The translations under genes and the position numbers were made by a program. A DNA stretch of 64,000 nt, the filler included, from Dirinaria sp. TL-2023a (lineage: Eukaryota): assembly GCA_051941275.1 (NCBI GenBank). It is 14 parts of 14 records of this genome, joined end to end, with 100 filler letters (N's around TTAATTAATTAA, not from the genome) between each part and the next. Parts side by side here need not be neighbours in the genome. Positions count along the whole stretch, not along the records: positions 36,843 to 41,312 come from JAVEBF010001835.1; 13 more parts are not named here. One strand, 5' to 3'. The notes below the pieces were generated by a model that was not told the origin of the DNA, searched no databases, and worked only from the letters and a program-made list of their open reading frames with translations. Below are positions 1 through 57,449 of the stretch, one piece after another (the stretch's first letter is position 1; every line of letters begins with the position of its first letter).

Positions 1-1905
1 GGAAGAGGGAAGGGTCGTGAGCGCTTTGTGGGCTTGAGGAGGGGTTCTTGAAGATTGGAGTGGGCTGACGGATGAAGGGGTTTGGGGCCGATCTAAAAAT
101 GCTACGGAGCGTCGAGGGCGGGCTGTGGGAGTTATTACAGGGGGTTCACAGAAAGACAATTGCTGGAGGAGATGGTGCATAAGGCATCGAGGACGCGAAG
201 TGGTGCTCGAGCGAATTAGCAGCATCTTGGGGAGGTAAAGCATTCGATCTCATGTCGCTCGTGCTCTAGGAGGATACATGGCCCCGCGAGGGATTTTTGT
301 CGTTGCGATTGTACATACATGTGTAGATTATGTACATTGATTCGATTTGTACGAGTACCTCACTCTTCAAAATACTCCTAACTTCATAAAGAAGGAATAC
401 TATACACATTGATAGCATGCGCTAAACGCGAATATATCGGCATTATGGAGGCTAAGCCCGATCAAGACATTCGCCTTCGAACTTGGATCCGAGCCCGTCA
501 AAAAGAATACACGAAGGAATTTCAAGCACGACTTAGAATATGAGATAAAGGAGTAAAGATCGCTTAAGAGATTCAAGATGCAGCACGAGCGGTTTTGAAT
601 GAGAATAGGAGGCTAGAAGTTACTACCGAGGAGATGCGAAAAGAGTGGGGGGATATGGTGGCCGTTGTGGTAGGAGGGGATTTGGATTATAGGAGGGTTG
701 TCGATGAGCTGGAATCGAAGCTCTGGGTGGTTGGATTATGGAATGATACTGCAGCTGGTGGCAAATTGAAGAATAATGCGAGAAAGGGCAAACTGAAAAT
801 CCCAGCAACGACTCTACATCCGGCTTGTCAAAATTTTCCTCTTTGCGCGCCGTTGATACAACCTTCAGGCTCTACGGGACGGAAGAAGCGATATCCAACA
901 AGTTCTACGAGCCCGCCAGTCATTGCAAATGCCTCGAATGAATTCAGACCTTCACATAGCCAAGGTGACATGAGTATATTAAAACGCTCAGAAAATAGGC
1001 AATTCGAGCTTCCAAATCTTCCAACACTGTCGCGAGAAAATCCTATGCAAAGCGAGCCATACACCGACCAGTGGTCCACGTATATGGGCTTCACCAACGC
1101 TGAGAGAAGAGTTCAATTCAACAGACCATTCTTTCTCTTGCGCTTTCGCAGTTGCAATTCTCACCAGTATCAGGGCTGACATTAGCGCAGAAGACATCAA
1201 AGCCGATTTAGGATGCGCTACCGATTTTGAAAAATGCAACATCGATAATAACCGTCTCTTTGGTACTGTGGATAAGTATACAAGGTGAAAAAAAGAATCT
1301 CGTTTGTGCCCAGTCTACTGCAATTATTCGTAAGCGCCGCTGGCTGAATGTCAGAGTTTTTTGTCACTGCTCTCATTTTGCAATCTTTGCAGCAATTGTT
1401 CACTAGTTCAATTGCTTCTAAAGTTTTAACACTGTGACCGCTCGAGCTATATGTCTATTGTTGGCCTCAATAGGGTGTAGCATACCACAGAAAATTCACT
1501 CCATGCCAGTGTCACGCCTAGTGTACGAATAGTTTCAACACCAATTTGTTTCTATTGTTTCCTTTGTTCACTGCAAGTATATTGTCAGCAAACCTTTTCG
1601 CATTGCAGGACCCGCAATTCCTTTTGTCCCTACTATATCTCCTTTGTTACACCAGCTAAATATAGTATTGTATATACTATTTTCTTTACTATATATCGGC
1701 GCTAAGAGGTCGTCGTCGCTGTGTGAATATTAACAATGGCAGCAATGTCGCCGTTAACGGCACTAGCAGCCATGCACAAACATCATTGTCAGAATGTTCG
1801 CACTCTCACCCTTACAAACCTTTCGCAGAAGCATCTTGCTCTCCAGAACTTCAATTCTCCCATCTTTGGCATCTTGATTCAACCAAATACACGATCTCAA
1901 TCGCT

Positions 1906-3859
1906 ATGGCCGCTCAGAAAGCTACCTCAGTGCAGTCGAGCCTACCAGCATCCTCAGGAACCATCGCACGTTTCGTCCAAACGCTTGTCGACGACGTTGA
2001 GAACGTATTTCCTGAAAACGATGCCCAAGTGGGCCCGAGCGAGTATGATACCAGTCTTCCCGGTTGGGATACGAGCGAACTCCCCCCCGGTCAGAGCATC
2101 CGTCCCGTCCTCCTAGAAACGAAAGTTCCTTCGCCTCTTGCTCTCGGCAAGAGCTTTGTCCACCTCAGCGATGCCGAGCACGGGCCCATATCAGACAGAC
2201 TCAGATTGACCTACAATCGCGCTGCCATTGCATGGAAAGATCCACAAAGAAGAGCACATGTCAGAAGCAAAGCAGCAGCGGGCGCTGGCGTCTACTGCTT
2301 GTTATGCTCATCGTCCGAAAGAGAGACCCGAAGCAAGATTCGACCACTACATGCTGAGTTTGGTAGCATCGTTTCGTCGGATGTGATCAAGCTGTGAGTT
2401 TGCAAACATCCATTTACATTGTCAGCGTACTAATTCTGACAGACCATCAATGAATCAAGCACCGGGCGCAGAGGACGATCCATCGGATACCGAACCAGTC
2501 AAGTCTATCCAAGTGTATTCTTTGACAAACCAAGCGACCGGCAACATAGAATATTTTGTCATGAATCCAGATTATTTCTATGATGTTTCGGTGAATGGCG
2601 TTACACTTGCACCTCTCGAGATTGCAGGTCCCCTCCCTAGCTTCGCGGTGGTAGAGGTCGAAGACGATGTGCTTTTCTGGTGGCGGAACCATAAGACACT
2701 CCTTCCTGAAGCTGAGTTCGAAAACGCTGGGAAGAGAAAGCGCAAAGAAAATGCAAGCGGTGATGTTAGCAGCCAACATATACCAAAGAAGCGCAAACGA
2801 GACGATTGTGTCAATAGAGTACGGTCCTGGCTTCTCTCCAAGAAAGAGGAGCTTAACTCTACCTCTTCTGGGACATCTGGGTCTGCTGCTGACAACGCCG
2901 CCACTGGCGCGCTGGGCTCTGCTAAGATGACTACCTCTCTGACAGCCCCCCAAACCCACACTGATGATGCGGGTCATATCGGAGACGATGCATCGAAAAA
3001 GGCGGGAGTATCTCTCGAGCTGAAGATACGGCTTTGCCATCCGAAGCAGCTCGGGCCACTAGCCCTCCAGGAGGATGAAATAGTCCTTGCTATTGGCAGC
3101 GTTTGGGCAGCGCTGCGCCAACACAAGTTGTTCGGCTACGGTAACGAAAGCGTTTTTGGCCAGCAAACTCCGGCCACCTTTTTCGGAGAGACAGCCTGTG
3201 GCCAAGGAAGCAAAAAGTTCATCATCCCCCTGATGTTGCCAAGCGCAGAACAGATCGAAGCCCAGGAGCAGGACCTTCTTCACCATCCGGAAACCGTTGG
3301 ACATTTTATCCTCATGGTTGCTCTCAAATCCGACACCAATCCCAACCACTACTCCCTGCAAAGGTACGACAGCTTCCCTCACATACCTCGAGCAACCATC
3401 CTCGAAGCCGCAACCAACGTCGTCCAATTCTCAAACTGGCTCGGCCTCGCCCCGCAGCTGCTGGAACACAATCCCTTCCTCACTGTCCCCACTCCGCGCC
3501 AGCAGATCCTAGACTCCTGCGGCATCTACACCATCCTCAATGCCTGGGCCGTGATGCTGGATATCGCGATCCACCCGGGCAACGAGCGCCGCGAGACGAA
3601 GTTCAACGAGCAGCAGTTCATCGACCGGGCGAGGGAGGTGATCGATCTCGCGCTCGCGGGGTGCATAGATATGCGCACCATCCGCTGGTTTTTGCACGAG
3701 TACGGGTATTCGGCGGTGCCGCAGCCTGAGCCTGAAGCTGGTCAAGGACCGGAGAGTGTAGATCGGGGTAAGATGATGACTGTGGCGATGCGCGACAGTG
3801 CTCTGGCGGACGCGATTGAGGATCAGAAGTTGCTTGATGATATCAGTGCTTTGTCATAG
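1906..3859 (+). CDS. Ulp1/C48-like cysteine peptidase domain protein with possible degenerate FHA-like N-terminal domain and basic NLS
   Basis: GT-AG intron 2394-2442 (branch site TACTAAT) joins ORFs 1723-2397 and 2450-3859 in frame. The C-terminal part has GHFILMV...YDS...PRQQILDSCGIY, the His-Asp-Gln-Cys order of C48 proteases. KRKRK and KKRKR motifs are present. Confidence 0.7.
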
Positions 3860-4070
3860 AAAAGGGTTTGTGATTGAAAACCTGGGGAGCACAGATATCT
3901 TAGCACCGATGAGCGCCATATCGACAAAGAAACCAGTCGAGATGTAAGATGAAAAGTCCACTCATTCACCAATTACATATCTTCGACACCAATTACAAAT
4001 CTATCAAAACTACCAAACCACGGATCCCCAACCTACATCGAAGTTTATAAAAAAAAAGACCGCCAAATAA

Positions 4071-4500
4071 TCCTTCAACTCACTCTCGAACTCTTCTTTC
4101 TTTCTAGTCTACATATTCTCATCAAAAACCCCGCTTCTATCAGAAAATCCTTCACTTCGACTTCAAATCACTTATCTCTGATCCTTTTTCTCACATATCA
4201 TCATCTGCATTTAAAAAAATCAAACAGATTCTCAGAATATACTTTTCTCTTTTCTCCCCTTCCCTCTGTCGCTGAGCCATCCAATCCCCCTCTCTCTCAA
4301 AAAAAGAGAATCAGAGATTAAACATAAAATTCTTGAACGTCTCTTCTCCCTCTCTATCGAAAACCTGTTTTATAGGGTTTATTCGTGAAAAAAAGAAAAA
4401 AAAATAAAAAAATAAAAAAAGAGGCAAATGATTCTTCAACTCACTCTCGAACTCTTCTTTCTTTCTAGTTTACATATTCTCATCAAAAATTCTTCACTTC
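4071..4500 (+). repeat. Imperfect direct repeat of about 60-80 bp (copies at ~4071-4158 and ~4432-4500)
   Basis: CTTCAACTCACTCTCGAACTCTTCTTTCTTTCTAG...ACATATTCTCATCAAAAA occurs twice. The second copy differs by C->T changes and an internal deletion of about 20 nt. Confidence 0.9.
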
Positions 4501-4533
4501 GTGTTCACAATCACATCGAGTCTCGTGCATCAT

Positions 4534-4633
4534 NNNNNNNNNNNNNNNNNNNNNNNNNNNNNNNNNNNNNNNNNNNNTTAATTAATTAANNNNNNNNNNN
4601 NNNNNNNNNNNNNNNNNNNNNNNNNNNNNNNNN
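4534..4633. other. Artificial contig-joining spacer (N44-TTAATTAATTAA-N44); first of 13
   Basis: Identical 100-nt spacers with stops in all six frames at 4534, 9157, 13775, 18385, 22983, 27572, 32160, 36743, 41313, 45882, 50439, 54995 and 59539. Intervening contig lengths fall monotonically from 4523 to 4444 nt. Confidence 0.99.
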
Positions 4634-5295
4634 GGCGATGTCACTCGGTCTGTCGAGATCAGGCAGAGCCCGAGCGCAGCTCTATCCGTGATGCCTCCAC
4701 CGTCTGGATTCGCACCACGTTTGGCAAGTGGTAGCCCGCATCCACAGAACCTGGGACTCAGCGCCCATACATCAAACCATGCAACCGGTAGTGCTTTTGA
4801 CTCGCGCTTGCGGCAGCCTGGAAAAGGTAAGGGATAGCACACCTTTTGTGCCCGCAAAGATTGTTTCTAACCGAGTCAGATGCTTCCGATGCACTAATCT
4901 CCAATCTTACTGTGTCCACACACCCGGGCCTGAAGCTCGACCAGCATTTTCATTGGGAAATATCTCCATCTCCTACATCCACTCACCAATCCGCAACCAT
5001 CAACCTACCTTCCACTCATTTCTTCCTCCGTCTCTGCCCAACGCTCGCATCGAATCTCAGTCAACGACCTAGCAAAGTTTTCGTCACTGCAGGCATGCAA
5101 AGACTGAATCCCATGCCCCAAAGGCCAGAGGAGACCGATCCACGAAAACCGCAATACGAGACCCGGATCGTTCCTGGGGTCAACCGCATTGAGATTGAGA
5201 TCGTAGCAGGGCCAACGAGAGGCGCACCCAAAATAGGTTCGGGTCCAGACGTGGAAATGGAAAAAATAATCCTCTTGGCCAACCTTGCCAAGTAA
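4634..5295 (+). CDS. 3' fragment of RSC4/polybromo-like chromatin-remodelling subunit (5' truncated by contig edge)
   Basis: Intron 4827-4879. The C-terminal THPGLKLDQHF...SATINLPSTHFFLRL...PGVNRIEIEIVAG resembles the C-terminal domain of fungal RSC bromodomain proteins (recognised by eye). Confidence 0.65.
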
Positions 5296-5820
5296 GTGGA
5301 AGTTTCTGTCTGTTATTCATGGGGACGTTATTGTGTTGGAGTTGAATCTGTAAGATAGGGGGGAGAGGGTTGTTAGGGCATCATGAGGAGCATCAGCTTT
5401 GAGGAAAAACAGATAAGGTAGTACCGTGAACCGTCTCGGCGATGCTCGTAGTAGGGCAACCCCGAGATAAAAGTTAGCCATACAAGTGTGACTCTGCTAC
5501 CCTAAGCCGAGTATGCCTCAACACTATATTAATTTTTGATTTTCATCATTTCTATACTCTATAATGAAGGACCCTGACTGACTGACTTATTGGCTACTGT
5601 ATCTGAGCGTGCCGCTGGGTAAGTAATATACGGAGACACCTCGGTACCTCGGTACTTCCCGGGCCTTTAATCAGCCTGTTCTATAGGGCTTAGCGTGACA
5701 TTGACGGGTCAGAACCGAAGTTTTTGTAGATTCGCTAGGAAGAAAATAAATTTGTGTGCCTCACAGACATCGACACCCTCGATACCACTGCATCTTTTGC
5801 ATTGCAGCAAACAAGCCAAA

Positions 5821-8006
5821 ATGGCGGATGAAGTATACGAAGGAGCTATCGGGATAGATCTTGGTACGGAATTCCTCAGGACCTATGAATGATCAACCTA
5901 CCACTAACATTCTCTAGGAACCACATATTCTTGCGTTGCCAACTATGAAGGCGCCAATGTCGAGATCAGTTCGTGCCCTTACGGATCTATCTTTCCAGAC
6001 AATAGCAAAGTATACTGAGCTAACATTGACTTTTGCAGTCGCCAATGAGCAAGGGAGCTTTACGACGCCCTCCTTCGTCTCCTTTACCGACGAAGAGAGG
6101 CTGATTGGCGAGTCTGCAAAGAATCAGGCTGCTATGAACCCTGCGAACACCATCTTCGATATCAAGTATGTTTGCCACTACAACCCGGTAAATCTTATAC
6201 CCTTGCTAAGGTCTCTCCAGGCGTCTCATTGGACGTCGATTTGATGACCCTACCGTCAAGAAAGATATCGAGTCATGGCCATTCAAGGTGGTTGATCAGG
6301 GTGGAAATCCAATGGTACAGGTGGAGTACCTAAAAGAGACAAAGACGTTCTCCCCACAGGAAATTTCATCCATGGTACTCATGAAGGTGCGCACGAGGAT
6401 TTTAGCGAAGCTTGCCATTTTCTCCTGACATGAGATAGATGAAAGAGGTTGCAGAAACCAAATTGGCCAAGAAGGTCAAGAAGGCCGTCATCACTGTTCC
6501 TGCCTATTTCAATGACAATCAGCGCCAAGCGACGAAAGATGCTGGAGCCATTGCGGATCTCCAGGTGTTGCGTATCATCAACGAGCCTACCGCTGCCGCA
6601 ATTGCTTACGGTCTCGGCTCCGGAAAATCCGAAAAGGAGAGAAACGTTTTGATCTATGATCTCGGTGGTGGTACATTTGATGTCTCGTTGCTGCACATCC
6701 AGGGCGGCGTCTTCACTGTCAAGGCTACAGCTGGTGATACCCATCTTGGTGGTCAGGACTTCGACACCAACCTTCTGGATCACTTCAAGAAAGAGTTCCA
6801 ACGCAAGACGAAGAAAGATCTCTCAGGCGATTCCCGGGCGCTGCGGAGGTTAAGGACGGCCTGCGAGCGTGCCAAGCGTACGCTATCCAATGCTACTCAG
6901 ACTACGGTAGAGATCGATTCTCTTTTCGAGGGCGAGGATTTCAATGCACAAATCACCCGTGCTCGTTTCGAAGACCTGAACCTTAAGGCTTTTAGTGGTA
7001 CTCTTGACCCGGTGCAGCAGGTACTTAAAGACGCTTCACTTGAGAAAGGGAAAGTTGACGAGATTGTCCTCGTCGGCGGTTCTACCCGCATTCCGAAGAT
7101 TCAAAAACTGCTAAGTGACTTCTTCGATGGGAAGAAGTTGGAGAAGAGCATCAATCCTGACGAAGCCGTTGCCTATGGCGCCGCAGTGCAAGCGGGTATC
7201 CTGTCAGGCAAAGCTGCTTCAGCCGATACTTCCGACCTCCTTCTTCTTGACGTTGTACCCCTATCACTTGGCGTTGCCATGGAAGGCAACATCTTTGCTC
7301 CAGTCGTTTCCCGGGGACAAACGGTCCCAACTTTGAAAAAAAGGCATGCCTTCATTCACTTGCCTTGTTCCCTCCTCCAAGAGATACTAATATGTTCGAC
7401 AGAACTTTCACCACCGTGGCAGACAACCAGCAAACGGTGCAATTTCCAGTATTCCAGGGTGAGCGTGTCAACTGCGAGGATAACACATCGCTTGGAGAGT
7501 TCACCCTCGCACCTATCCCACCTATGAAAGCAGGTGATGCAGTGCTCGAAGTTGTGTTCGAGGTCGACGTCAATGGCATCTTAAAGGTCACTGCTACCGA
7601 AAAGACTTCTGGGCGAAGCGCCAACATCACAATCTCCAATTCTGTAGGCAAGCTGTCCTCAACGGAGATTGAGAGCATGATCAATGGTGAGCAGAGATGA
7701 TTGGCACACCAAGGATATATTGCTTACAAAAGGTCAGATGCCGCAAAGTTCAAAAACAGCGATGATGCTTTCAGCAAGAAGTTCGAGGCTAGGCAACAAC
7801 TCGAATCATACATTTCACGCGTCGAGGAGATCGTCTCCGACCCAACCATGTCACTGAAACTAAAGCGTGGCACTAAAGACAAGATCGAAACCGCACTGAG
7901 CGACGCAATGGCTCAATTGGAGATCGAGGACTCGGCGTCGGACGACCTGAAGAAGAAAGAGCTGGCACTGAAGCGACTTGTCACGAAAGCTATGTCGACA
8001 CGGTAG
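5821..8006 (+). CDS. SSB1: Ribosome-associated Hsp70 chaperone SSB
   Basis: [17 protein letters not shown] and [12 protein letters not shown]sp70 signatures. The C-terminus is [11 protein letters not shown] with no EEVD, typical of Ssb. Introns at about 5864-5917, 5969-6038, 6166-6220, 6387-6438, 7344-7402 (GC-AG) and 7687-7737. Confidence 0.97.
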
Positions 8007-16279: not shown

Positions 16280-17027
16280 GGGACTGGGTGGTACGACAGA
16301 GAATAAGGGGAGGAGAGGGGGACAATGATGGAGAGAGTCGCTTAGAAAGAAAGCAAGAAGGTATCTGCATCGATGTAGCATTGGAGGCCTACAAAATTCA
16401 ATCTGCCGACGGTGACAATGCCATCAATCTACGTTGTCCCCTTCCGCATTTACATCGAGAGCTCCACTCTGTCGTCATCGTCTTCTTTGTCTCTCTTGGT
16501 CTAGTTCAGTACGATCAAAACCTCTCCTCTCTTCTCTCTCTCACACACATACACATAAAATCAGCAATCGTACTCGGCGCATTGATATCATCTGGGAGAG
16601 ACTGCACAAATCGAACTTAGAATCAGATCAAGTCGGGAGCGAAGAGAAAGACATGACTACCTTAATTTATCGATACTAAGCCGCACTAGGATGCTTCGCT
16701 AAGCTCTAGTCGCACTAGCGTTTTTCATCGTCGCTCGCTACTTTTCATCGTGACAGCGTTAAGATTACCCTCGTACGTTTGCTTTGAGGTAAGATACCTT
16801 GGTACTCTGTACAAAAATCAATTCCACGTACCCTAGGTCCAATAATTGATAAACTACAATCATCTACCTACATGTACTTTTATTTTGTTAAAGCTGTGCT
16901 GACGACGCCTTTCTGGCAAATTATTTGACAAAAGTACGCAATCTGCACTCATTACCGTTGCATTTCCATTTGATCCTTCTGCATACTTGGTCATTTCACG
17001 AATCTTGTGCATCACAGATACGTTGCG

Positions 17028-28076: not shown

Positions 28077-31000
28077 TTATAACGGTGCTTTGGTCTCCGG
28101 AATCTCAATGCCCTTCTCCATTTTCGGAGGGATCCCGCCGCCATATCCTTGCGGTGCTACCGCCACTTTGACACCATACGGATCCGCATTGTTTGTTGGC
28201 TGCAAGGAAGCTTTATCGGGTGGGGATTTCTGCGCGCTGGTAACAACATCCAAGGGCCCTCGTTGCTCCATGTTTGGCGGCCGACTCAGAACACTCGCTG
28301 GCTCCGTGTTCTGTTTGTCACTAGGTGTTCGTGGAGAGACACGCCCATTCTAATAAGAAAACAACATTAGAAACGCTAGCTTGATCAAAAGTTCATGCTG
28401 ATGATGATGAGGGGCTCACCTCCTTGGCGTATCTCAGACCACAGCTGTTACAGAGATCTCTGTTCCCGCTCGGTCCTCTCCTCCATTCTGGAGTGACCCT
28501 GGTGTGGCAGTTCGCGCAGTCTTTCTGCAAATGGCCTGCTCCATTCCTGCGCTTTCTTTTTTTCTTGCTTGATAAAAGACTCTGCAATTCCTCTGCCAGC
28601 AATCGATTTCGTTTCTCCATTTGACGAAGTTCGAACTGCCAGCTGGTGCTGCGAGTAGTCTTGAGTTCATCGAACACGTTCTCTTCTGAAGCTAAGGCTT
28701 CATGTTGTGTACCGATAGCAAGAGCATTCCCCCCTGCTTCGGTAATGACTTGCTCGTTGGGAGGATTCTGGTTTGAATTGGCTGATTTGGGGGTCAAGGG
28801 TCCGCCCGAGACGGCACTTGACGATGTTTCGGGACTTGCAGACTTGGCTTCCGCTTTCGCAGGTGCTCCGCCCGCAGATTGTCGGTTGGCTGTGCTAGAA
28901 TGCCGGGAAAGCTTGAGAAGCCGTGTCTGGGCAACTAAGAACGTTGGTTTTGTGCCTTCCGCCGCGTCGCCAGGATATATGGTGGTCCTGGCTTGCAAAG
29001 TCTGACCGCGCTTGTTTTGAACGTCGTGCTTGAACGTCGCTCTGACACCGGTCCTTGCGAGCTCCAGCATTTTCCCAAATTCGAGTTTCGATTCGGATCT
29101 CATCAAGGCCTGTGCGCTGGTACCTACTAGATCATCTGGTTGACGATCTAGAAGACTTCGTACGTTTGATGATACGAATAGGAACATCCCTGAAGTAGAC
29201 ATCTTCGTCCACAGCTCGCATTCTCCAATGCCGCCAACCGAATCGATGTCTTTTCGAAAGAGTGCATAGACGGGCCGCTCGCGTCCAACCATGATGATGC
29301 ACTTACGCCCTTTGCCTTGCTCTAGATGTAATGATCCGTGGCTCTCGAACCATGTGTAGCCGTTATGTTTTCGCCTGATACGAAAAACCACATTCACGGC
29401 GGAGCCCGTCGAGGTGTCTTTCAGCTCTCGAGTGACCGGGACAATGTCACTGGGATGACACACTGATGAAAGAGCGGTGCCAACAAGCTCACTAGGATCG
29501 TACTCGAGGACCTTTCGACTCGAAGGTGATAGGTACAAAAATAACCCTTTTAGAGAAAGCACGTGCACAACATCGTCAGTGTTCTCGAGAAGGACTTTGT
29601 CCCATATTCGCTTCGAAAGTTCGGATTCGCCGGTACCGATCGTGCTCAGAACTGTCGAGACTTCGTCTCTCCCAACAGTTTGACCTATGTCAGGGTTCGG
29701 CTGGTCATTGTGCTGAGGTATCTGATAATGAGGCAATGGGCCACGTTGGTAATTGATAGTGTAAGTGCCATCTGCGAACCTTTCAGATTTTGTTACAAGA
29801 CTGAGAGAGGGCAGGGTTACGACTGACCTGGATTCTTATTCGTGATCGATGCTGGCTGCTCAACAAGGTCGACTTGAAAACCGACATAGTACTTTATTTC
29901 TTCAGAATCCCAGGTGATTGGAATCATTGTGAGAAGATTCATAAACGGCTGTCCACCTTTCCGGTAGTTGATGATACTGATCTGCATCTCCTGCCGCTGG
30001 TTGATCATGTTCTTAATTCGCAGCACAGAGTTATCATCAACATATTTACGCTTTACGCCTGCCTGGATTTTGCCGTCCGGAGCCTGCAAAAATCGACAGT
30101 TTCTGCCTAGAATCTCGTGTTTAGTGTATCCTGTGAGACGCTCAAAGATGTCCGAACAATACACGATTGGTAGGTCATGCTGAGTAACGTCACAGACGGC
30201 GAATGCACAGGACATATCCACGGCCCCAATGTTGATCAAAGGCTTTGGTCTTGTGGCAACTCGCGTCAAGACACCGAGCATATCAAATCCACTTGAGGAG
30301 TAAGCATTGCGATACTGAGGTACCACGGGTTGAGGCGGTGGTTTCTGCGCACTCTCCCCTTGTGACACTGGCGGTCCGCTTGGAGCCGATATATCAAGGT
30401 TTGCGTTGGACTGCACTTGATCTGGTGGACTCAGTTCCGGAAATCTTCCCAATGAGTTCACCGGAGGTGCTTGTGGGGCGTTTTGCAACGGTATGGGTTG
30501 CTGAGGAAGGTCCTGTGGTGAGACGTTGGATTGGTGGGTTTGAACTCGATCGGACAATTGAAGGGCAGGCATCTTTTCTGTCGGATCCTGCTCAGCATGA
30601 CTTTTATTCATCCCGCCCCCCGGGTCCTCAGTTGGACCTGTTATGGGATTACACATATTCTGCTGCATCGGTGAAGAGGAGAGGTTCGGAGTGAAAGCGG
30701 CCTGTGAGTACATGTTCATTGGCGTCACGTCGCCGTTGTTTTCATGGTTCAACCCGCCGGCCGAGTAGTCCATTCCCATCAACATATTATTCGACATGTA
30801 ATCGCCATGAATGTCGAGAGGCATAGAATTCGAATGATGCAATGACGGATGGTAGGGGGAGGAGGACACCATAGGATTGTAGCCAGATCCAATACCCTGG
30901 AACTGTGTGTCTAGAGCCATTTCCCCAGCAGACTCTCGGCGCCGCGAGTTTTGGCTGTCCATCCTCCGCTGAGCAATATTTCCCGGGCGCTGCGTGAACG

Positions 31001-31379
31001 GAGCGGTATTTGTTGGGGAAGGGTCGAACTGGAAGCCTGCCAGTTCTCCATTACTTCCGGATCCAAACTCCATCATCGAGGGCCTCCCCGGGTCAATACT
31101 TCCTCTGTTGGACCCGTATTGCTGCGACTGCTGGAAACTCCGCCGGCGTTGCATCTCCTTGCTATTCATATTGAGGATGTCGTCCAGCATTTGACCCCCC
31201 ATCACCCCCGAGGTATCCATCCCATTGCCCATCATCATGCCCATCATCGCGTCGTGGTTGTTGAAATCCGTCATGGTCTGCATGTCCTCGGTCGAGTAAG
31301 GTGTCTGGCAGTAGCCACCCATGTTGCTGTAGTTGGACTGATTCATCTTGAGCCAGGAGTCCGCCCGTCCCGAGGACAT
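28077..31379 (-). CDS. wc-1: White collar-1 blue-light photoreceptor / GATA transcription factor
   Basis: LOV domain GRNCRFLQ, two further PAS domains, KKKRKRR NLS and GATA finger CANC-x18-CNSC. Introns 29827-29772 and 28419-28350. Start is 31379 or 31346. Confidence 0.97.
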
Positions 31380-31910
31380 CCGCGGGGTTTGCGCGATATT
31401 ATGCCGATCCTTGCTCTCGAATTCGGTGCTGCTCCCATTCCATGACACTCTGCTTCACATTGCGCCTCCGCAGAACCAAGTTGCGGGGAAATGCGGAGGT
31501 TGCGGAGGTTGCGGTGGCCGTGGAGAGTTGGGCCCAATACGTCAGACAAAGGACGGTTCTACTCCCGGAACACCACAACAGTCAGCAAGCGTGGCGAGTG
31601 AGAGGGCGGTCAGCGGAGAGCTTCGGACAAGGTTTGACAGGATATATGCGCTGAGGCTGGTTGGCGATGTAGGAATGCGACGATAGCGATGTAGCGCAAT
31701 CAGGCCCAATGGCGCTGGAGCATTACGCACTTTCGGCGGGCGAAGGCTCCTTTTTTTCGTTAGGCGACTCAGGGTAACACGAGGGCAGCAAGAAATCGTG
31801 TGTCGGCAATAGACATAATAGCCAACGAAATTGGGTGTCGATGTATTGGGGGGGGAAAGGGTAAGGTATAGGATAGCGCGGCGGTATTTTCAGATTGGTA
31901 GTGGGTAGTG

Positions 31911-36644: not shown

Positions 36645-39149
36645 CCTTCGACTTTGAGAGCGAACGAAGGAACGTGAAGCTTCTCAGTAAAATCCTAAAC
36701 AATGGTCACGATAAATGTCCTTGCCAAATCTTTGGGGGGGAANNNNNNNNNNNNNNNNNNNNNNNNNNNNNNNNNNNNNNNNNNNNTTAATTAATTAANN
36801 NNNNNNNNNNNNNNNNNNNNNNNNNNNNNNNNNNNNNNNNNNAGCTTGACGACTGCAGTCGACGACGCTTCTTCGAAGATGCGCTACAAGAATCGAGATC
36901 TTCGAGGCTTTGTGAACTCGAATGACGAGGTGAGTGTGAGCTCTCAGAGCGCTGATCGTGGGTTGATGAAGTTGACAATGAAAATGATGATCACCGAGCG
37001 TGCTTGCTTTCAGGCAAAGCGTCGGAATCTATATCTGCAAGCGCTCGTTTGTGAGGCCTCTGAGGCTTTGAATAAAGTACATCAGTGCTCATGACGTTCA
37101 AATGTAGAAATATAAAGAAAAGAAGAAATGGCGTTGAGTGAGCGACAAGTGATTCTTCGGACCCCGTCTCCAGTGAGTTTCACAGCGAGTGACGACTGCG
37201 CGATTAATTGACTGACACGAATTGTTGTCTCAAAGCGCAAAAGCCTTGGCAAGATGCATAATTCTGAATTAGCGCCCATCCTAACCCTGCCGTAAAGGAA
37301 TGGAGTCAGAAATGAGTGTCTGCATTAGTCAATACCCAGAGACATAAAATGCATCGCGGCTTCAACGTAATTTGGTAAAGGACAATTTCTCCTCTTCTCC
37401 GAACGCGTTCTGCTTCTCAACGACAGAGTTAAAGTCTTGCTAAAAAGTTAACAGATAACGAGTAGGATGCATTCTAGAGTTATGCTAACTTATGATCGAT
37501 ACATCATACTGTTACCCACGATTTCTGCTAACGTAGAAGGTCATTGTTCGTGATCCTTCGATCGATATGTATAATATCGTCCGTTTCTGCGGATGATAAG
37601 TGCAACGAGGGCTGACACAATCGTGTCAGCTGATCTACCTCTTTGATTAAATTTAGTTTTCTCCTGATGAACTGTTGCGTCTTTGCTTTTGCTGCGTACT
37701 ACATGCTCTGAATTTGTCTGAACTACGGAAGGATGAAGAATGTTATACTGCTGCTTACCTTCGCGAATCTGAGTGACTTGGCCCTGGCTTATATAGATAA
37801 GCAGAGACCTTCATTTTTAATGTCTTTACAGTCTTGAGAACTCTGGCACCCTTAGAACCATATTCATCTAGAATTAAATCAACAGGTTCAACATCGCAAT
37901 AGTTCAGATGAAGATCGTAATACTTGTTATTTGACACAGTCGCCGAAGGATTGCTAGACTCGCAGAAAGTTAAGTCGATCACTTTCTTTACTCGAACAAT
38001 CGAGCGAGCATCGAAGAAGCTCAGAAATCAGCGAGGGCCAGAAAAGTAAATGTGATCTGAAAAATCTGTCTGCAACTTAGTCGCGATGATAAGATCACTG
38101 AATACATCATTTTATTTAAAGACTGTACTCTACGTGCACTTTAAATGGGAAGGATCTCGATAGCCTCTATGCAAGTAAAATGGATGTTTTTCTGTGCTGA
38201 CGTAGACAGTCACTACAAAGTGGTGTGTAGAGTACTGTATGATGTTAGTTTTCTGCAGCGCTTTTGATTACGGCGGATGAACTTTCCTCACTTTTGAATC
38301 CTGATGACATTTCCGCACGAAGTAATACTGACGATTCGTCAAGTGCTTTTGATTCGTATGCGCAAACGAAACTACGATTCATCGATTAATATTGAAACAA
38401 CAATTCAGTAGGCCTGTCAAAATAGCTGCTCACGTTTTACACTTTGTAGGATTCTGAGCTTTCAGTAAATAATCACAGTTCTGAAGTCTCCTCACCTCTT
38501 TCCGAACAGTCTCAGGATTAAGGAATTTCAGCGTCGGGTGGCAAAGAGTCAGAAATCGTAAAGATTGTTGAGAAGAGACGAACAAGAGGGTTCTGATTTT
38601 AAGATACGTTAGAAGAATACATAGCTGCGCAGAACAGAATTGAGAAATGCACATGACTGCTGCCACAGTCTGAGACCACGTATAAGACGCTGCGAAGAGA
38701 CAAACGAAAGAGAGTTGTATGAGCAGATAAAGGTTGGTAATTGTTTTGATGCAGACTTATCTTCTACGAACATTTATGAGTCAATCAACATCGAATTAAA
38801 CAAGTTTTAAGCTATGTCAGTTGTTTAAGATTCTCTAGCCCAGCTTTGTGCGGAAACATGCTTCAAGTGTGTTCATCTTATCGTTGACAAGATGCTAGGG
38901 TATCAAGTCAAATGATACCGATTTGATGCGACTTTTCCGAAGTCGTTCATGGAATCTTTTGCCTTTTATACCTCTGCATCGCTAGGCTTGACTTGGATTC
39001 CAGATAGAATAGGGAGGAACTTCAGAGTTAGATGCTTTTCAATATCATCTTTCAAAGTATATTAGATCAGTCTCATCGGAAAAGAATTCCTCACGAGACA
39101 ACGCTCTTTATTGATGCTTCAGATTTCTTTGGAAGATGAAGATGCTGAT

Positions 39150-41312
39150 TCAACCATCAGATACTTGTAACTTTTTCAGATTACGTCCGATCATTTTCAT
39201 TTTCGAATGATCTGAATCTCTAAGTCTTATAAAGTTATTCAGTGCTCGCTGATACATCTTCTCCGCCTCGATCAGCTTGCCCTGATCAGCGTAGAGAAGA
39301 CCCAAGTTATTGACGATGTCGAGGGTCGATATGTGCTCCGAACTCAATGCTTTCTTCTTTCCATTCAGTGCTCGCTGATACATCTTCTCCGCCTCGATCA
39401 GCTTGCTCTGATCAGCGTAGAGGCTGCTCAAGTTGTTGACGATGTTGAGAGTCATTTAGTGCTCTGAACCTCATGCTTTCTTCTTTTCATTCAGCGCTCG
39501 CTGATACATCTTCTCCGCCTCGATCAGCGTGCTCTGATCAGCGTAGAGAAGGCCCAAATTATGAAAAGTATCATTACAGTCTTCGTCTTCGATCTCATTC
39601 AGCTCCTCAGTAGTGTGAAGCTGCTGCATGCATCGATTAGCATGCGAGAGCAAGCGTCGCTGCATCACTCAGTATGCTGACTCTGATGACTCAGCCGTAG
39701 CATCTTCAACAGTGATCAGAGCAAGTCTCATCAGATCAAGCTTATCACAACTGATCGACTCGATACATCAGTCATGCACGATCGAGTGCATGAAGTAGCT
39801 TTCGATGTCTTGATGCGACTCGATCAACGAGTAGACGAGCAGTCTCTTCATCACTCTCTTAAATCTCAACTTCTGTCGAATAATATCTTGCAGTCAGTTT
39901 GAGTCTTTCGAGCCCCGACTGTCACGAATCAGCAGCTCAAATCATAGATCTTGATGATCGAGATACGCTCACAGCTGAAAAAGCTTCGTCGCTGCGAGAT
40001 TTACTTGTCTGATACGATCGTATGAGATCGTTCATGTCGTCTGCACGCTGTCATTCGTATAATCACGCATCTCAGATATCTTCGTCTGAAGTGCGAATCA
40101 TGATGTCTCGTACAGTCTAAGATAACTCTGACAGCTCGTCCTCGTCTTCTGCATGTATCGATCGACCTGAACGATGACTAGCGAAAGTTCTCTCAGTCTG
40201 ATCACGAGACTGTTCATCTCTGCGTATTCCTTAGTTCAGATAATTAGAACGAAGATCAAAGCACGTGATTATCTAATGTAGACAAACATGCTCGTACGTT
40301 ATTTCTGACAATCTGACGTTCTTGTTCTTGATCAACACTCGTCATTTTCGTCGCCGACTCATGTTCTTCAAGATGAGGAAGTCTTGTAGTGATCAGAACG
40401 GAGTCATGATCACTGACGAAAAAGAAGAACTCGATGTCATAAACTTGTTGATCTTTCGTCTCCGCCTGATAGTCTCGGTCAACGTTGTCAAAAACTAGAA
40501 GTCATCGATGATTGCCGTCACGCGCGAGTCATCGAAGAACAGCATTCGCCTTCTCTCTCAATTCCTGATCGTGTTCGATCGCGTTGATCGTCGATTTTCG
40601 TGTGTCATCGATCTCTGTATTCTTTGCAAATGCCGCAAGACTCTGCACAAGCGTATCTCGACTGTTGCCGTTTAGTCATAGAATCGCACTATATCTCTTC
40701 TGATATTTGCGAGCATATGCGATGACTAGCTGCGTCTTGTCGATGCCGTCGAGATCGCGAAGAACGTGAATCCGTCGTCGATCTCGCGCATTCGACGAAA
40801 GTAATGATCGTTCGATCGATCTCATCTTCTGATCTCGATCGACAAAGTTATCAGTAATCGACAGATCAGTAAGACGAAACGACACGCGAAAACTATTTTG
40901 TTCAGAGAAACAATGTTCTATAAGACAATACTGTTTAGAAATCGAGTATCGTCTGTTGAGAGAAGTGATTTCATATCTCCCGCACTATCTACCTTGATTT
41001 CGAGTCGTGATGAGGTCTGACGACTGCTCGATCATCTTTTCGATCACCTCGCATATCGTCTGAAAGTTCTTCTTCTTCGATCGTTCGAACTTGTTCATAC
41101 TGAAATGATTCCGCGATAGAGAGTATTTCTTCGTTGACTCGCTCTGATCTAGACAGTCAAAAGTCTCGTCGATCACAAATTTCTTTCTTCTCGATCAGTC
41201 TCGCGCTCTTTTTGAATCTCCCTCACTTATCTGAATTCGGCTCTCGCGAAGAATGGCGCTCACATTGCTCGATTTCTGCTCGAAGAAACAGACTATCTGA
41301 GTCTTGTCTTCG
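39150..41312 (-). pseudogene. Fungal NLR pseudogene (probable SesB-like hydrolase - NB-ARC - TPR), heavily hypermutated
   Basis: Degenerate Walker A DLDGIDKT (GLGGIGKT), LLVFDNVD Walker B, ELSLVI (GLPLAI) and MHSIVHD* (MHPVVHDW). Many TGA at Trp positions. C-terminal NNLGLLYADQGKLIEAEKMYQRAL TPRs. Confidence 0.92.
39241..39560 (-). repeat. 126-bp (42-aa) tandem TPR repeats with high internal identity
   Basis: AG(T/C)GCTCGCTGATACATCTTCTCCGCCTCGATCAGC recurs at 39241, 39367 and 39493. Confidence 0.92.
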
Positions 41313-41412
41313 NNNNNNNNNNNNNNNNNNNNNNNNNNNNNNNNNNNNNNNNNNNNTTAATTAATTAANNNNNNNNNNNNNNNNNNNNNNNNNNNNNNNN
41401 NNNNNNNNNNNN

Positions 41413-50538: not shown

Positions 50539-52180
50539 TATTGTTCATTGATGACTTAACCCAAAAAAAACTTCGTTTTTGATCAAACCACTGACTTTCT
50601 GATAGGAAATGTAATTGAGATAGACAAGTTTGGGGATATTTTTTCCCCTTCTTCGATTTCCTTTCCAAAAGGCACGCGGATTTCAAAATATCCCCTTTTA
50701 CCGAGAGAAACGAATTCGATTGAATCTTTGATTGCCTTTTCGTGCTTCTTACGAATAATCTGTGCTTTGACTTTTAAAGATCCATATAAAAGTCGAACGA
50801 GGTCCTTCCGGGTAATCAGGCTAGGAAAAGTATCTGAACTTTGGGATAGAAGAGTAGATAACGATTGTGCTTTTTTTTTTGTGTACACCGGAGGGGGGCG
50901 GTTTATGGGGGGGAAATTGTACTGAGGAATCGTTTGCTATGTATGTATGGTGGAATTGAGATCTGATAAGTAAAGCAGAAGAATAATGTGATGATATGAT
51001 TCCTTCAGTCGAGACCTCTTTTGAATGACTAAGATATCCCTCTCTGTGGATTCTCAGCTTCAAGATACCTCTTATCTCCCTCTCACTACTGTCAGAGCCG
51101 CTTTTATTGATTTTCTTGACGTGAGAGAAGTTCCTTTTCGTTGGATAATATAGAAGATAAATCTCTCTCTCTTTGCTCTCAATTCTGTGGTTCAAGATTC
51201 ATGGCTTGATCATTTCTTTTCTTATCCTTATCGAATGCTTGGCTCTTGCTTAGTACTAGTACTCAGTACTTAGAAAGTGATCGGATTTGTATTGCGGACG
51301 GTGATGCTTGCGCTTCGCTGCAACCGAGATTGCGAATATTGCTTGTGAGTGTATCTGAAATCCATGCTCAAGCTGTAAGGTAGAGTGAGGATGTTTATGT
51401 TTGTGGAAATTGCTCGATTTTGTAGACGCGAGGTGTTGGCGCTAAGAGGCGGACATCGCTAGCGTTTGTGTGAGTGTGATCTAGACTTGTTTTTCGAATG
51501 CTGGGGATTGATTTTTAAGTGACCAGTTATTTTTTTGTGTAAAATTCCGTGGGATTTAGCTTATTTTTCGTGGTTTTGGCTGGTGGAGGAGACCTAAAAT
51601 TGACAAATGGATTTGAATCGTGAAAGCGAAGTCTTAATAATCTTAAAACCCTTATAGTTATACTAAGCCAATCTAAAATCTCAAATAACACGATCGAGTC
51701 ATAAATGATATCAGGTTCTTGATCATGATAATTGAAGTATTTGGCAATTTCAAGGAAATGCGAGCTCACTTTTAAGTTGATGATGACTCCATTGACTCGT
51801 GTAAAGTTGGCGTATCAGCATCAAAGTGAATGGCGTAGGTATAGCCCAAAACCATGGACAGAGAGTGACCTAGAGTCCATTTGGGGTGCTGGAAAATACC
51901 TTATGAGACCCTCAACGATCATCGAAGTAAAGTCACTAGTGAACTAGGTGATCTTTTTCAGCGCTTTGGTCTTTTTTGCATACGCTCCAGGTACCTAAAT
52001 CTTTCTTCTTCTCCCTTTGATGTTACCTCCACTAGGTTCCTGCAAATGCGAAGACAGCTGTGGAGGTCGAAAAGGGAGGGAAGGAAGCGCGAGGTGGAAG
52101 GTTAGATTTTGGGAAAGAAGAGGAGGGGGGAGAAAAAGAGATAAGAGGCGAGTTTGCAAAGTAGGTAGATCAAGAGACAT
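50539..52180 (-). pseudogene. AT-rich degenerate coding remnant(s), family not recognised
   Basis: Fragmented ORFs (50583-50888, 50821-51195, 51527-51769, 51995-52180), several K/I/S/F-rich, with interrupting stops, in AT-rich DNA. Confidence 0.35.
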
Positions 52181-55725: not shown

Positions 55726-57449
55726 TCAACCGCACACCATACTCTCTTTTGGTATCTCTGGTTTTGGCACTCCATCCGCCTGATCTACCTTCTCCCTCAA
55801 CGACTCGACTTTCGGCTTCACCACGTTTGCGTCCACGGTCGCCATGCCTTTCAGCTTTTTCATATCTTTCTTACTAATCCTCATACTACCCTTCTCCAAT
55901 GCTTCCTTCGGTAAAGGTCGGACATATGGCTGGCAAACCCACCAAGGTCGCTTGCAAGCCTTTGCAGTGGCCAAAGAGGTCTGGTCTCCGTTCTGCTCGC
56001 CTGTCTCATGTTCCTCGCCACGCGGGTCTGGAGGAGAGTCATCTTCATACTGTGCGGGATTCGACGCGTAATCGATGAGACCTGCTTTGACTACTCGTTC
56101 AACCATAATCAGGACGTCCTCGAAAGCAGCCATGTTTCCACCACGAGACCGAGCTAGGGCGTCTCGAATATCGGTGTGCTTAGACACAAGCGGACGGAGG
56201 AGGTGGAATAGATGTGGCTGCATTGCGAGCAGACTTGGTGAAGTGCTTTTCTCATCCTTTTTGCTCTGCTTTTGCCGTTTTGCGGGTGGTTCGTCAGCAG
56301 TCTGTCCATCGAGCTCCTCAGCCACGTCTCCGACGAGACCATCTTCCTTGGGGTCTGATGGTAAGAACAGCGGCTTCCGCTTCGGTGGAGTAGTTTCGAG
56401 AACATATGTGTAGAGGATATCCATATAGCGTCGGAACACAGCATCCATTCTATATCCGCCTTTTCCGTCCCGGCCTCGCCAGTACTCACGGCCTTCGTTC
56501 CCCACTGCTGGGGGCTCCGCGAAGATGCCAGGATCACACAGATTGCCTTCAGCGCTCATGACTCCGTCCGCGCCTGTCTCTTCCAAGCATCTGCTGATGT
56601 CTTCATGCTTCAGGATGTTTCCATTCGCAAATATTACTGTTTCAGGGGGAAGGTGGTCCCTTAGATAGCGCAGAACAGACCAGTCCGCCAAGCCAGTATT
56701 GTGTCCCTTCTGCTCTCGTTGTCTCCCATGAACAGTAATGATAGAAGCTCCGGCAGACAAGATGACCTTTGCATATTCTAAAGTCTTCTCCTTCGTTTCC
56801 AGTATACGCATCTTCGCTGTGACGGGTATATCAAGCTTGTGGTGCAGCTTATTGATCAGGTTGTATATCAGGTTCCAATCCTCTTGCAAGAATGCGCCAT
56901 AGTGCCCCTTCCTCGCTATACCTTGCGGACAGCCCAAGTTGAGATCCACAGCATCACAGAACGGCTGTACGTATAGCGCAGCTTCGAGGAATTCGTCAGG
57001 CGAATTCGCGCAGAACTGGACAAAGAGCGGCCGATCGTGAGTAGGATGGCCATCGAGATGCAGATTTTGTGGCGCGCAATCGTCTGGGCCAGGGACAGTA
57101 GCAAGTCCACTTCGGACAGGTTGGAAGTGGTGGTTACGAAATTTGGCGGTCTCGGTGAACAATCGTCCATGCAACATGGGCGTGTAGGCTAAAAGGTCTT
57201 TTGACGATTCAGGGGACAGGTATGAACGTGTGAGCATGCGCCATGCCTGCGGAGTCATTCAGTCCGGTTGATACAGACTCCAAGTAAAGAAAAGCATACG
57301 AACTCTGACTGATCTACCATGGGCGCAAGAATAATCTTTGGGCTCCCAAGCCTCTCATAAAACGCCCGACCTGTCAGTTTTTCTCTGGTGGGTTGACGCT
57401 CTCCCCATGGTGCAGTGGGAATTGTATGTAAAGGGAATGGTAGGGCCAT
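55726..57449 (-). CDS. DUS1: tRNA-dihydrouridine(16/17) synthase
   Basis: LAPMVDQSEF|AWR (intron 57299-57247), YTPM, DRPLFVQFCAN, DLNLGCPQGIARKGHYGAFL, HGR, ANGNI and DGVMSAEG motifs. Confidence 0.95.

Follow-up and report, generated by a model that had tools for sequence, protein, structure and literature searches.

RIP-like hypermutation with a new sequence context in an NLR pseudogene and related loci of lichen-associated fungi

A pseudogene of the NOD-like receptor (NLR) family in an assembly of Dirinaria sp. TL-2023a (GCA_051941275.1) carries a dense tract of C:G>T:A transitions that are strongly concentrated at cytosines followed by a second cytosine (CpC). The pseudogene lies on the minus strand at positions 39150–41312 of the window, the 64,000-nt stretch of DNA analysed here, and forms part of a small contig of 4470 nt (36843–41312; JAVEBF010001835.1). 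Alignments to related loci show that the tract arose by mutation, and they establish the direction of the changes, their sequence context, their presence on both strands and the boundaries of the tracts; the same signature recurs in three loci from different assemblies. We class it as a new context variant of hypermutation resembling repeat-induced point mutation (RIP), present at at least three loci of lichen-associated fungi.

The tract was first apparent from composition. The original prediction, made from the sequence of the window alone, described CC and GG as scarce in this interval while CA/TG and CG were kept, and the dinucleotide count that it called for bears out this description. 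Observed/expected values were calculated for 39150–41312 and for the rest of the window: CC occurs 42 times (0.33, against 0.94 in the rest of the window) and GG 10 times (0.11 against 0.95), TC and GA are raised (286 occurrences, 1.76 against 1.15, and 190 occurrences, 1.77 against 1.12), and CA (137; 1.06 against 1.07), TG (138; 1.03 against 1.09) and CG (156; 1.48 against 0.91) are retained. Together, CC and GG number 52, compared with 214.5 ± 11.8 (minimum 177) in 2000 mononucleotide shuffles and with a minimum of 177 and a median of 245 in 281 equal-sized windows of the other 13 contigs, which confirms a depletion that is real and far beyond chance. All CC-containing trinucleotides stand at 0.03–0.34 of their frequency in the other contigs, CCA/TGG being nearly lost with 2 remaining, and TCG, ATC, TCA and TCT are up 1.8–2.4 times (TCG 2.4) with no enrichment of CTN. 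A gain of the TCN type without a gain of CTN indicates loss at the 5′ C of CC.

The depletion is confined to one of the 14 contigs of the window. Taken as a whole, contig 36843–41312 has observed/expected values of 0.44 for CC and 0.35 for GG, compared with 0.81–1.03 and 0.84–1.03 in the other 13 pieces. It is CC/GG-poor and TC/GA-rich throughout, most strongly at 39500–41312, where each 500 nt holds 6–12 CC+GG versus 103–126 TC+GA, and moderately further left. Other mildly CC/GG-poor spots in the window (3751–4500, 16501–17000 and 51001–51500) reflect a CT- or GA-rich composition of one strand and are not tracts. The window also has no AT-rich block, the lowest GC content of any of its 300-nt windows being 0.33.

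Comparison with related DNA shows how the depletion came about. Six intact relatives were aligned and used to scan metagenome contigs, which yielded 80 loci (an earlier 11-sequence alignment was too diverse for this search), two of which, L004 and L010, are colinear with the window copy of the gene over ~1.95 kb at 81% and 78% identity. At the 1674 positions where L004 and L010 agree, the window copy shows 117 G>A and 75 C>T changes (192), beside 25 reverse transitions and 35 transversions. With C>T conversion counts merged over strands and expressed as converted over available sites, cytosines with a 3′ neighbour C were converted at 109/170 sites (0.64), those followed by A at 16/190 (0.08), by G at 12/202 (0.06) and by T at 20/228 (0.09). 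CpC thus stands against 48/620 in the other contexts, an odds ratio of 21 (Fisher), and conversion by 5′ neighbour is flat at 0.18–0.23. Where the ancestral state also matches the outgroup majority, the counts are 53/79 for CpC versus 15/317 for other contexts, and the L004 and L010 lineages, given the same treatment, have balanced transitions and no CpC excess. The polarised alignments therefore uphold the proposal that the NLR gene mutated at the 5′ C of CpC and, on the opposite strand, at the 3′ G of GpG; neither a CpA-dominated nor a context-free distribution of C>T changes, the outcomes named in advance as contrary to it, was observed.

The next position along has its own effect, with CCA converted at 0.88, CCG at 0.73, CCT at 0.60 and CCC at 0.19. 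The low value for CCC is expected, because the middle C mutating first would remove the context of the first C. C>T and G>A changes are interleaved (runs test, z = 0.85, the value for the 117 G>A and 75 C>T changes of the window copy, and −0.88), as expected of RIP acting on both strands, and the frame of the window copy is intact except at an intron, with no insertions or deletions. At the protein level, an open reading frame (ORF) from ENA, P0010, aligns colinearly with 283 codons of the window copy; of the 67 C>T/G>A changes inferred from this comparison, 52 fall in CpC/GpG context.

The same signature is found beyond this locus. We screened the 80 loci in 500-nt windows, flagging a (CC+GG)/(TC+GA) ratio below 0.3; five loci were flagged, all within one metagenome assembly series, and L011 (0.30) and L018 (0.27) were borderline. 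In L003, a tract at ~1500–4300 spans the whole of a DUF676-NB-ARC-TPR gene and holds 207 C>T/G>A changes versus 9 reverse transitions and 8 transversions, with conversion at 141/234 CpC (60%), 12/349 CpA, 29/290 CpG and 10/305 CpT. Its flank (1–1150) is ~97% identical to L011, with 16 differences in the first 1000 nt and no bias, and non-C>T changes on the L003 lineage within the tract (17/2493) are no more frequent than in the flank. Similarly, the first 1000 nt of L027 differ from L023 by 90 C/G>T/A changes, 4 reverse transitions and 3 transversions, and CpC is converted there at 85/138 sites (62%) versus 0.02–0.04 in other contexts; this tract stops at ~1000–1200, before the NLR gene is reached from upstream. 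In both L003 and L027, each edge of the tract falls within a few hundred nt. Alongside the value of 21 for the window copy, the odds ratios for CpC versus other contexts are 27 in L003 and 53 in L027 (Fisher), and CpC dominance in the terms used by RIPCAL, as we computed it, is 2.3, 2.8 and 5.3 for the three loci in the same order. One-way C:G>T:A transitions, a hallmark of RIP, predominate at all three.

Several features were observed around these loci. Approximately 250 nt of L003 (1133–1428), exactly at the left edge of its tract, have no counterpart in L011 or L001 and could mark a point where the affected unit was structurally broken. Downstream of the L003 NLR lies a second CC/GG-depleted stretch (4801–6000), also lacking a counterpart in L011 or L001, and 300 CC-rich nt (4501–4800) stand between the first and second depleted stretches. 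L011, a mostly intact relative, has a few CpC-type changes at 3000–3600, a P-loop reading GLDDIGKT and TGA at two Trp codons. In L002, which was among the five loci flagged, positions 1–1000 form a classical AT-rich block. It has 8–12% GC and 54–63 TA per 300 nt, lacks both CC and GG, directly adjoins a related NLR gene and has the appearance of a canonical, heavy RIP signature; the L002 locus shares its metagenome assembly series and NLR family with the CpC-tract loci.

The window copy at 39150–41312 comprises the end of an N-terminal esterase-like domain, an NB-ARC region, DUF7779 and TPR repeats. The gene is truncated on its 5′ side by the contig end, where a linker begins at 41313. A phmmer search returned 1041 relatives (best E = 2e-61), a Lepraria neglecta protein among them; the window copy matches relatives at E = 2e-61 to 2e-44, and the P-loop and Walker B positions align. 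Pfam recognises TPR_10 (E = 6.6e-21) and TPR_12 (E = 1.3e-20) in the second half, and DUF7779 at 28.0 bits (cut-off 27), so that the C-terminal repeats and linker typical of fungal NLRs are present. NB-ARC, expected in the first half, is below the reach of Pfam in the window copy, and exceeds the cut-off in three of four relatives scanned (P0004, P0009 and P0022; P0003 is just under). An NB-ARC domain, named in the earlier identification as an NLR gene, thus scores in relatives but no longer in the window copy itself.

Within this gene, all on the minus strand, the damaged motifs first picked out by eye were recovered. In the P-loop at 40733–40756, a change of three Gly codons to Asp has turned the GLGGIGKT of relatives into DLDGIDKT; ELSLVIVQVD and SYFMHSIVHD, the latter followed by a stop, were likewise found, and a Walker-B-like stretch, LLVFDNVD (40478–40501), is retained. 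Eleven Trp codons in the span 39471–40678 now read TGA (low coordinates 40676, 40529, 40502, 40098, 40032, 39969, 39942, 39894, 39768, 39669 and 39471) where L004, L010 and L001 have TGG at 11/11, in agreement with the claim that Trp codons had become TGA and not TAG. TGA makes up 15 of the 17 stops read across two frames. We compared 16 stops with the relatives: 11 are the TGA codons opposite TGG, two lie inside a 53-nt intron, and a TAA at 39456 stands where relatives have ACA or ACG. The two stops at 41195 and 40985 (TGA and TAG, in the N-terminal part) also occur in L004 and L010, which makes them older or intronic; either a further intron is present there, or the whole subfamily was inactive already.

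The 53-nt intron (40220–40272) is conserved in relatives, and its donor has changed from GT to AT in the window copy, a G>A change after a G. A frameshift mutation near 40250 was rejected, since the change of frame there is due to this intron. The ORF predicted for P0010 reads through the intron and then continues out of frame. P0010 is less mutated, and compared with window 39770–40600 its lineage has CpG-type changes, with CGA>CAA five times and TCG>TTG twice. Further along the gene, three 126-nt TPR repeat units at 39237–39560 are 89–93% alike.

We consider it probable that a paralogous fungal NB-ARC/TPR NLR copy was killed by a CpC-specific deamination burst, the agent being most likely a RIP-like pathway triggered by homology or repeats. 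The target would be an NLR paralogue of a lichen-forming Lecanoromycete, represented by contig 36843–41312, and it would have been inactivated when cytosines in its double-stranded DNA were deaminated in a burst. C would have been converted to T almost solely before another C, at ~60–65% of such sites within a bounded tract and on both strands, and the predicted outcome is the observed kind of damage: TGG>TGA stops, Gly>Asp/Glu and Pro>Ser/Phe replacements and a lost splice donor, with no insertions or deletions. Homology or repeats would serve as the trigger of this RIP-like pathway, and the agent may be an enzyme of the cytosine-C5-methyltransferase type, related to RID/Masc1 or DIM-2, that reads C rather than A as the 3′ neighbour. 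Reading of the 3′ neighbour is a habit of C5-methyltransferase-type enzymes (CpG, CpA, CCGG, GGCC). The identity of this enzyme is inferred, as are triggering by duplication and a premeiotic timing.

Duplication as the trigger is suggested indirectly by a multicopy, transition-dominated family in one metagenome run together with the sharp bounds of the tracts. In that lichen metagenome run, which contained 0.06 of the words and in which depth does not stand for copy number, 88 contigs align to contig 36843–41312 at ≥80% identity, with ≤10 per site. Counted as places, their differences comprise 510 transitions versus 98 transversions, in both directions, which is expected if several copies mutated independently. 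Along L027, a TPR array at 4300–5850, with 126-nt units that are 82–90% alike, has normal GG (30–36 per 300 nt).

A number of observations weigh against a RIP-like, repeat-triggered origin. Of the 608 differences of the run, 40 were listed; CpC/GpG context accounts for only 14 of the 33 transitions among these, a weak signal. Self-comparison of the window revealed no paralogue, only internal TPR repeats and a short repeat at 4051/4414. The TPR arrays of L027 are unaffected, from which it follows that not every repeat triggers the process, and the hypermutated stretch there is upstream of the NLR, in sequence not known to be multicopy. CpA is converted at only 3–8% and RIP indices are negative, whereas canonical RIP prefers CpA and raises TpA. 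Finally, the contig comes from a binned metagenome assembly, which makes its assignment to the mycobiont likely, not certain.

Among other explanations, a deaminase that is not a methyltransferase (AID/APOBEC-like, or a toxin-type enzyme acting on double-stranded DNA), recruited by heterochromatin or transcription rather than by homology, is unlikely, although it survives best. Pure C>T/G>A hypermutation in tracts would suit such an enzyme, an option that the original prediction had also left open. Characterised AID/APOBEC and DddA-type deaminases, however, read the 5′ neighbour, and the specificity seen here is wholly 3′, the 5′ neighbour being flat; nor does the runs test reveal strand-coordinated runs of changes. 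A known process of this kind is the editing of retroviral cDNA by APOBEC3G, which also hypermutates CC/GG and turns Trp codons into stops, but it acts on the 3′ C of CC in one strand of single-stranded cDNA, giving GG>AG and TGG>TAG. In the window copy, it is the 5′ C that is mutated, with GG>GA, TGG>TGA at all 11 Trp codons and changes on both strands of an intron-bearing copy, so the APOBEC3G type of pattern is absent. An edited retro-copy or cDNA is ruled out, since the intron is retained. The interleaving of changes on both strands and the retention of the intron fit a RIP-like, methyltransferase-type process on double-stranded DNA better than APOBEC-type editing.

Passive decay, in which silenced DNA is methylated at CpC and loses its 5-methylcytosines by slow spontaneous deamination with no active burst, appears to us slightly less likely still. 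It too would yield C>T changes on both strands that depend on the 3′ neighbour and keep within a limited tract, and CpG is the second most converted context in L003. The tempo, on the other hand, is burst-like. Conversion of 60% of CpC in L003 beside 17/2493 other changes corresponds to a rate ratio above 100, far exceeding the excess of mutation at methylated CpG, which is roughly 10–15-fold, and L027, over its first 1000 nt, differs from L023 by just 7 changes that are not C>T, beside the 90 C/G>T/A changes. We know of no CpC-specific methylation in fungi, and passive decay would thus need an equally new specificity.

That the signature is not mutational at all, and instead reflects errors of assembly or sequencing, DNA damage, ultraviolet (UV) lesions or a contaminant whose DNA is poor in CC, is highly improbable even for a short, unplaced contig from a metagenome bin and for lichens under strong UV exposure. 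The signature stands in three loci from different assemblies with sharp edges beside flanks ~97% identical to an unmutated relative, and both the outgroups and the ruin of conserved motifs fix the direction of change. UV acts mainly on the 3′ base of a dipyrimidine and yields CC>TT, unlike the conversion of ACC, which has no 5′ pyrimidine, at 24/31 sites. Both UV damage and an assembly artefact were rejected.

Returning to the proposed RIP-like pathway, the tract resembles RID- and DIM-2-dependent RIP of Neurospora crassa in consisting almost only of C:G>T:A changes on both strands, without insertions or deletions, in dense, bounded tracts, in the creation of stops in genes that are, or here may be, duplicated and in affecting a multicopy family. 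It differs from it in context, with CpC (60–64%) rather than CpA (3–8%) converted, TpA not enriched, GC near 43% and negative indices. At the locus, TpA/ApT is 0.45, (CpA+TpG)/(ApC+GpT) is 1.23 and the composite index is −0.78, all on the non-RIP side of the usual thresholds; the CpA preference, TpA enrichment and positive indices of canonical RIP are lacking, and the forecast that indices of the TpA/ApT type would miss this locus proved right. NLR paralogues are known substrates of such a mutator in the nwd/HNWD family of Podospora, in which RIP acts on paralogous NLR genes. There, as here, the affected copies become pseudogenes, but the context is the canonical CpA.

Variation in context among RIP-like processes has been described before. 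Aspergillus nidulans MATE elements show CpG and CpA changes, and copia-like elements of Microbotryum violaceum show TpCpG changes (PMC2621366). As far as the available text of that work goes, the preferred 3′ neighbour therefore varies between fungal lineages, as it would here, but TpCpG is the target in Microbotryum, whereas in the window copy TCG is a product. RIPCAL has CpC>TpC among its four formal classes, with the index (CpC+GpG)/(TpC+GpA), and in the portion of the paper available the cases reported with it are CpA, CpG and TpCpG, with no CpC-dominant species named (PMC2621366). According to the accessible part of a kingdom-wide survey from 2025, which covered 1,239 fungal genomes, RIP-like defences share a CpA preference, and CpC is not mentioned in that part (PMC12543289).

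Work on Cladonia rangiformis (PMC12542154) and Xanthoria (10.1101/2025.11.25.690456), which belong to the same fungal class as the proposed target, describes, in the sections available, regions rich in AT and heavily affected by RIP that were identified with standard tools. The L002 block, with its low GC and abundant TA, is similar to these. According to the same sections, the Cladonia and Xanthoria regions drop to about 16% GC; the CpC tracts, in contrast, stay at about 40–44% GC and keep CpA, TpG and CpG. CpC-dominant RIP was not found in the full-text literature searched, the scope of which left out subscription surveys (e.g. one of 2011 on filamentous ascomycetes), so that a prior description is possible.

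As to the surroundings of the pseudogene, the 64-kb window consists of 14 contigs in descending order of size, from 4533 down to 4362 nt, chained by N44-TTAATTAATTAA-N44 linkers, and adjoining pieces are consequently not genomic neighbours. The linker at 41313–41412 (N run, TTAATTAATTAA, N run) is non-biological and marks the contig end. On the other side, the sequence 3′ of the NLR gene (36843–39149) is moderately depleted in CC/GG, and copies related to it occur in the lichen metagenome run; its read-through frames contain no Pfam family and no recognisable gene. In another contig, an ORF at 55729–57258 (minus strand) is 100% identical to an NCBI protein attributed to a metagenome-assembled genome of the lichen fungus Dirinaria sp., and its next named relatives are all from Lecanoromycetes, which identifies the organism as a lichen-forming ascomycete. 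Elsewhere in the window, a long ORF at 28393–31454 (minus strand) is, judging by eye, presumably a photoreceptor of the white-collar-1 type that ends in a GATA zinc finger, and another at 6439–7527 (plus strand) is one that, again by eye, we take to be Hsp70-like.

To our knowledge, what sets the sequence context of RIP has not been established. A clean, ~20–50-fold preference for CpC, recurring in three lichen-fungus loci, would be a natural specificity variant, found while a canonical AT-rich block sits beside a related NLR in a fourth locus, and it would allow a direct comparison of the target-recognition parts of RID/DIM-2-like enzymes. More tentatively, and on balance with somewhat less confidence than we place in the fate of this one gene copy, lichen-forming Lecanoromycetes may carry an undescribed mutator that recognises duplicated segments and deaminates only C before C; it could be C5-methyltransferase-like or a new double-strand DNA deaminase, and would be distinct from the RIP that makes AT-rich blocks. 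If this is true, surveys based on AT-richness or TpA would miss the CpC mutator across the class, because GC stays near 43% and TpA is unchanged. The CpC preference itself would also show that standard detection of RIP by TpA/ApT and a drop in GC undercounts both hypermutated DNA and dead paralogues in Lecanoromycetes, and it bears on the pruning of NLR repertoires in lichen fungi.

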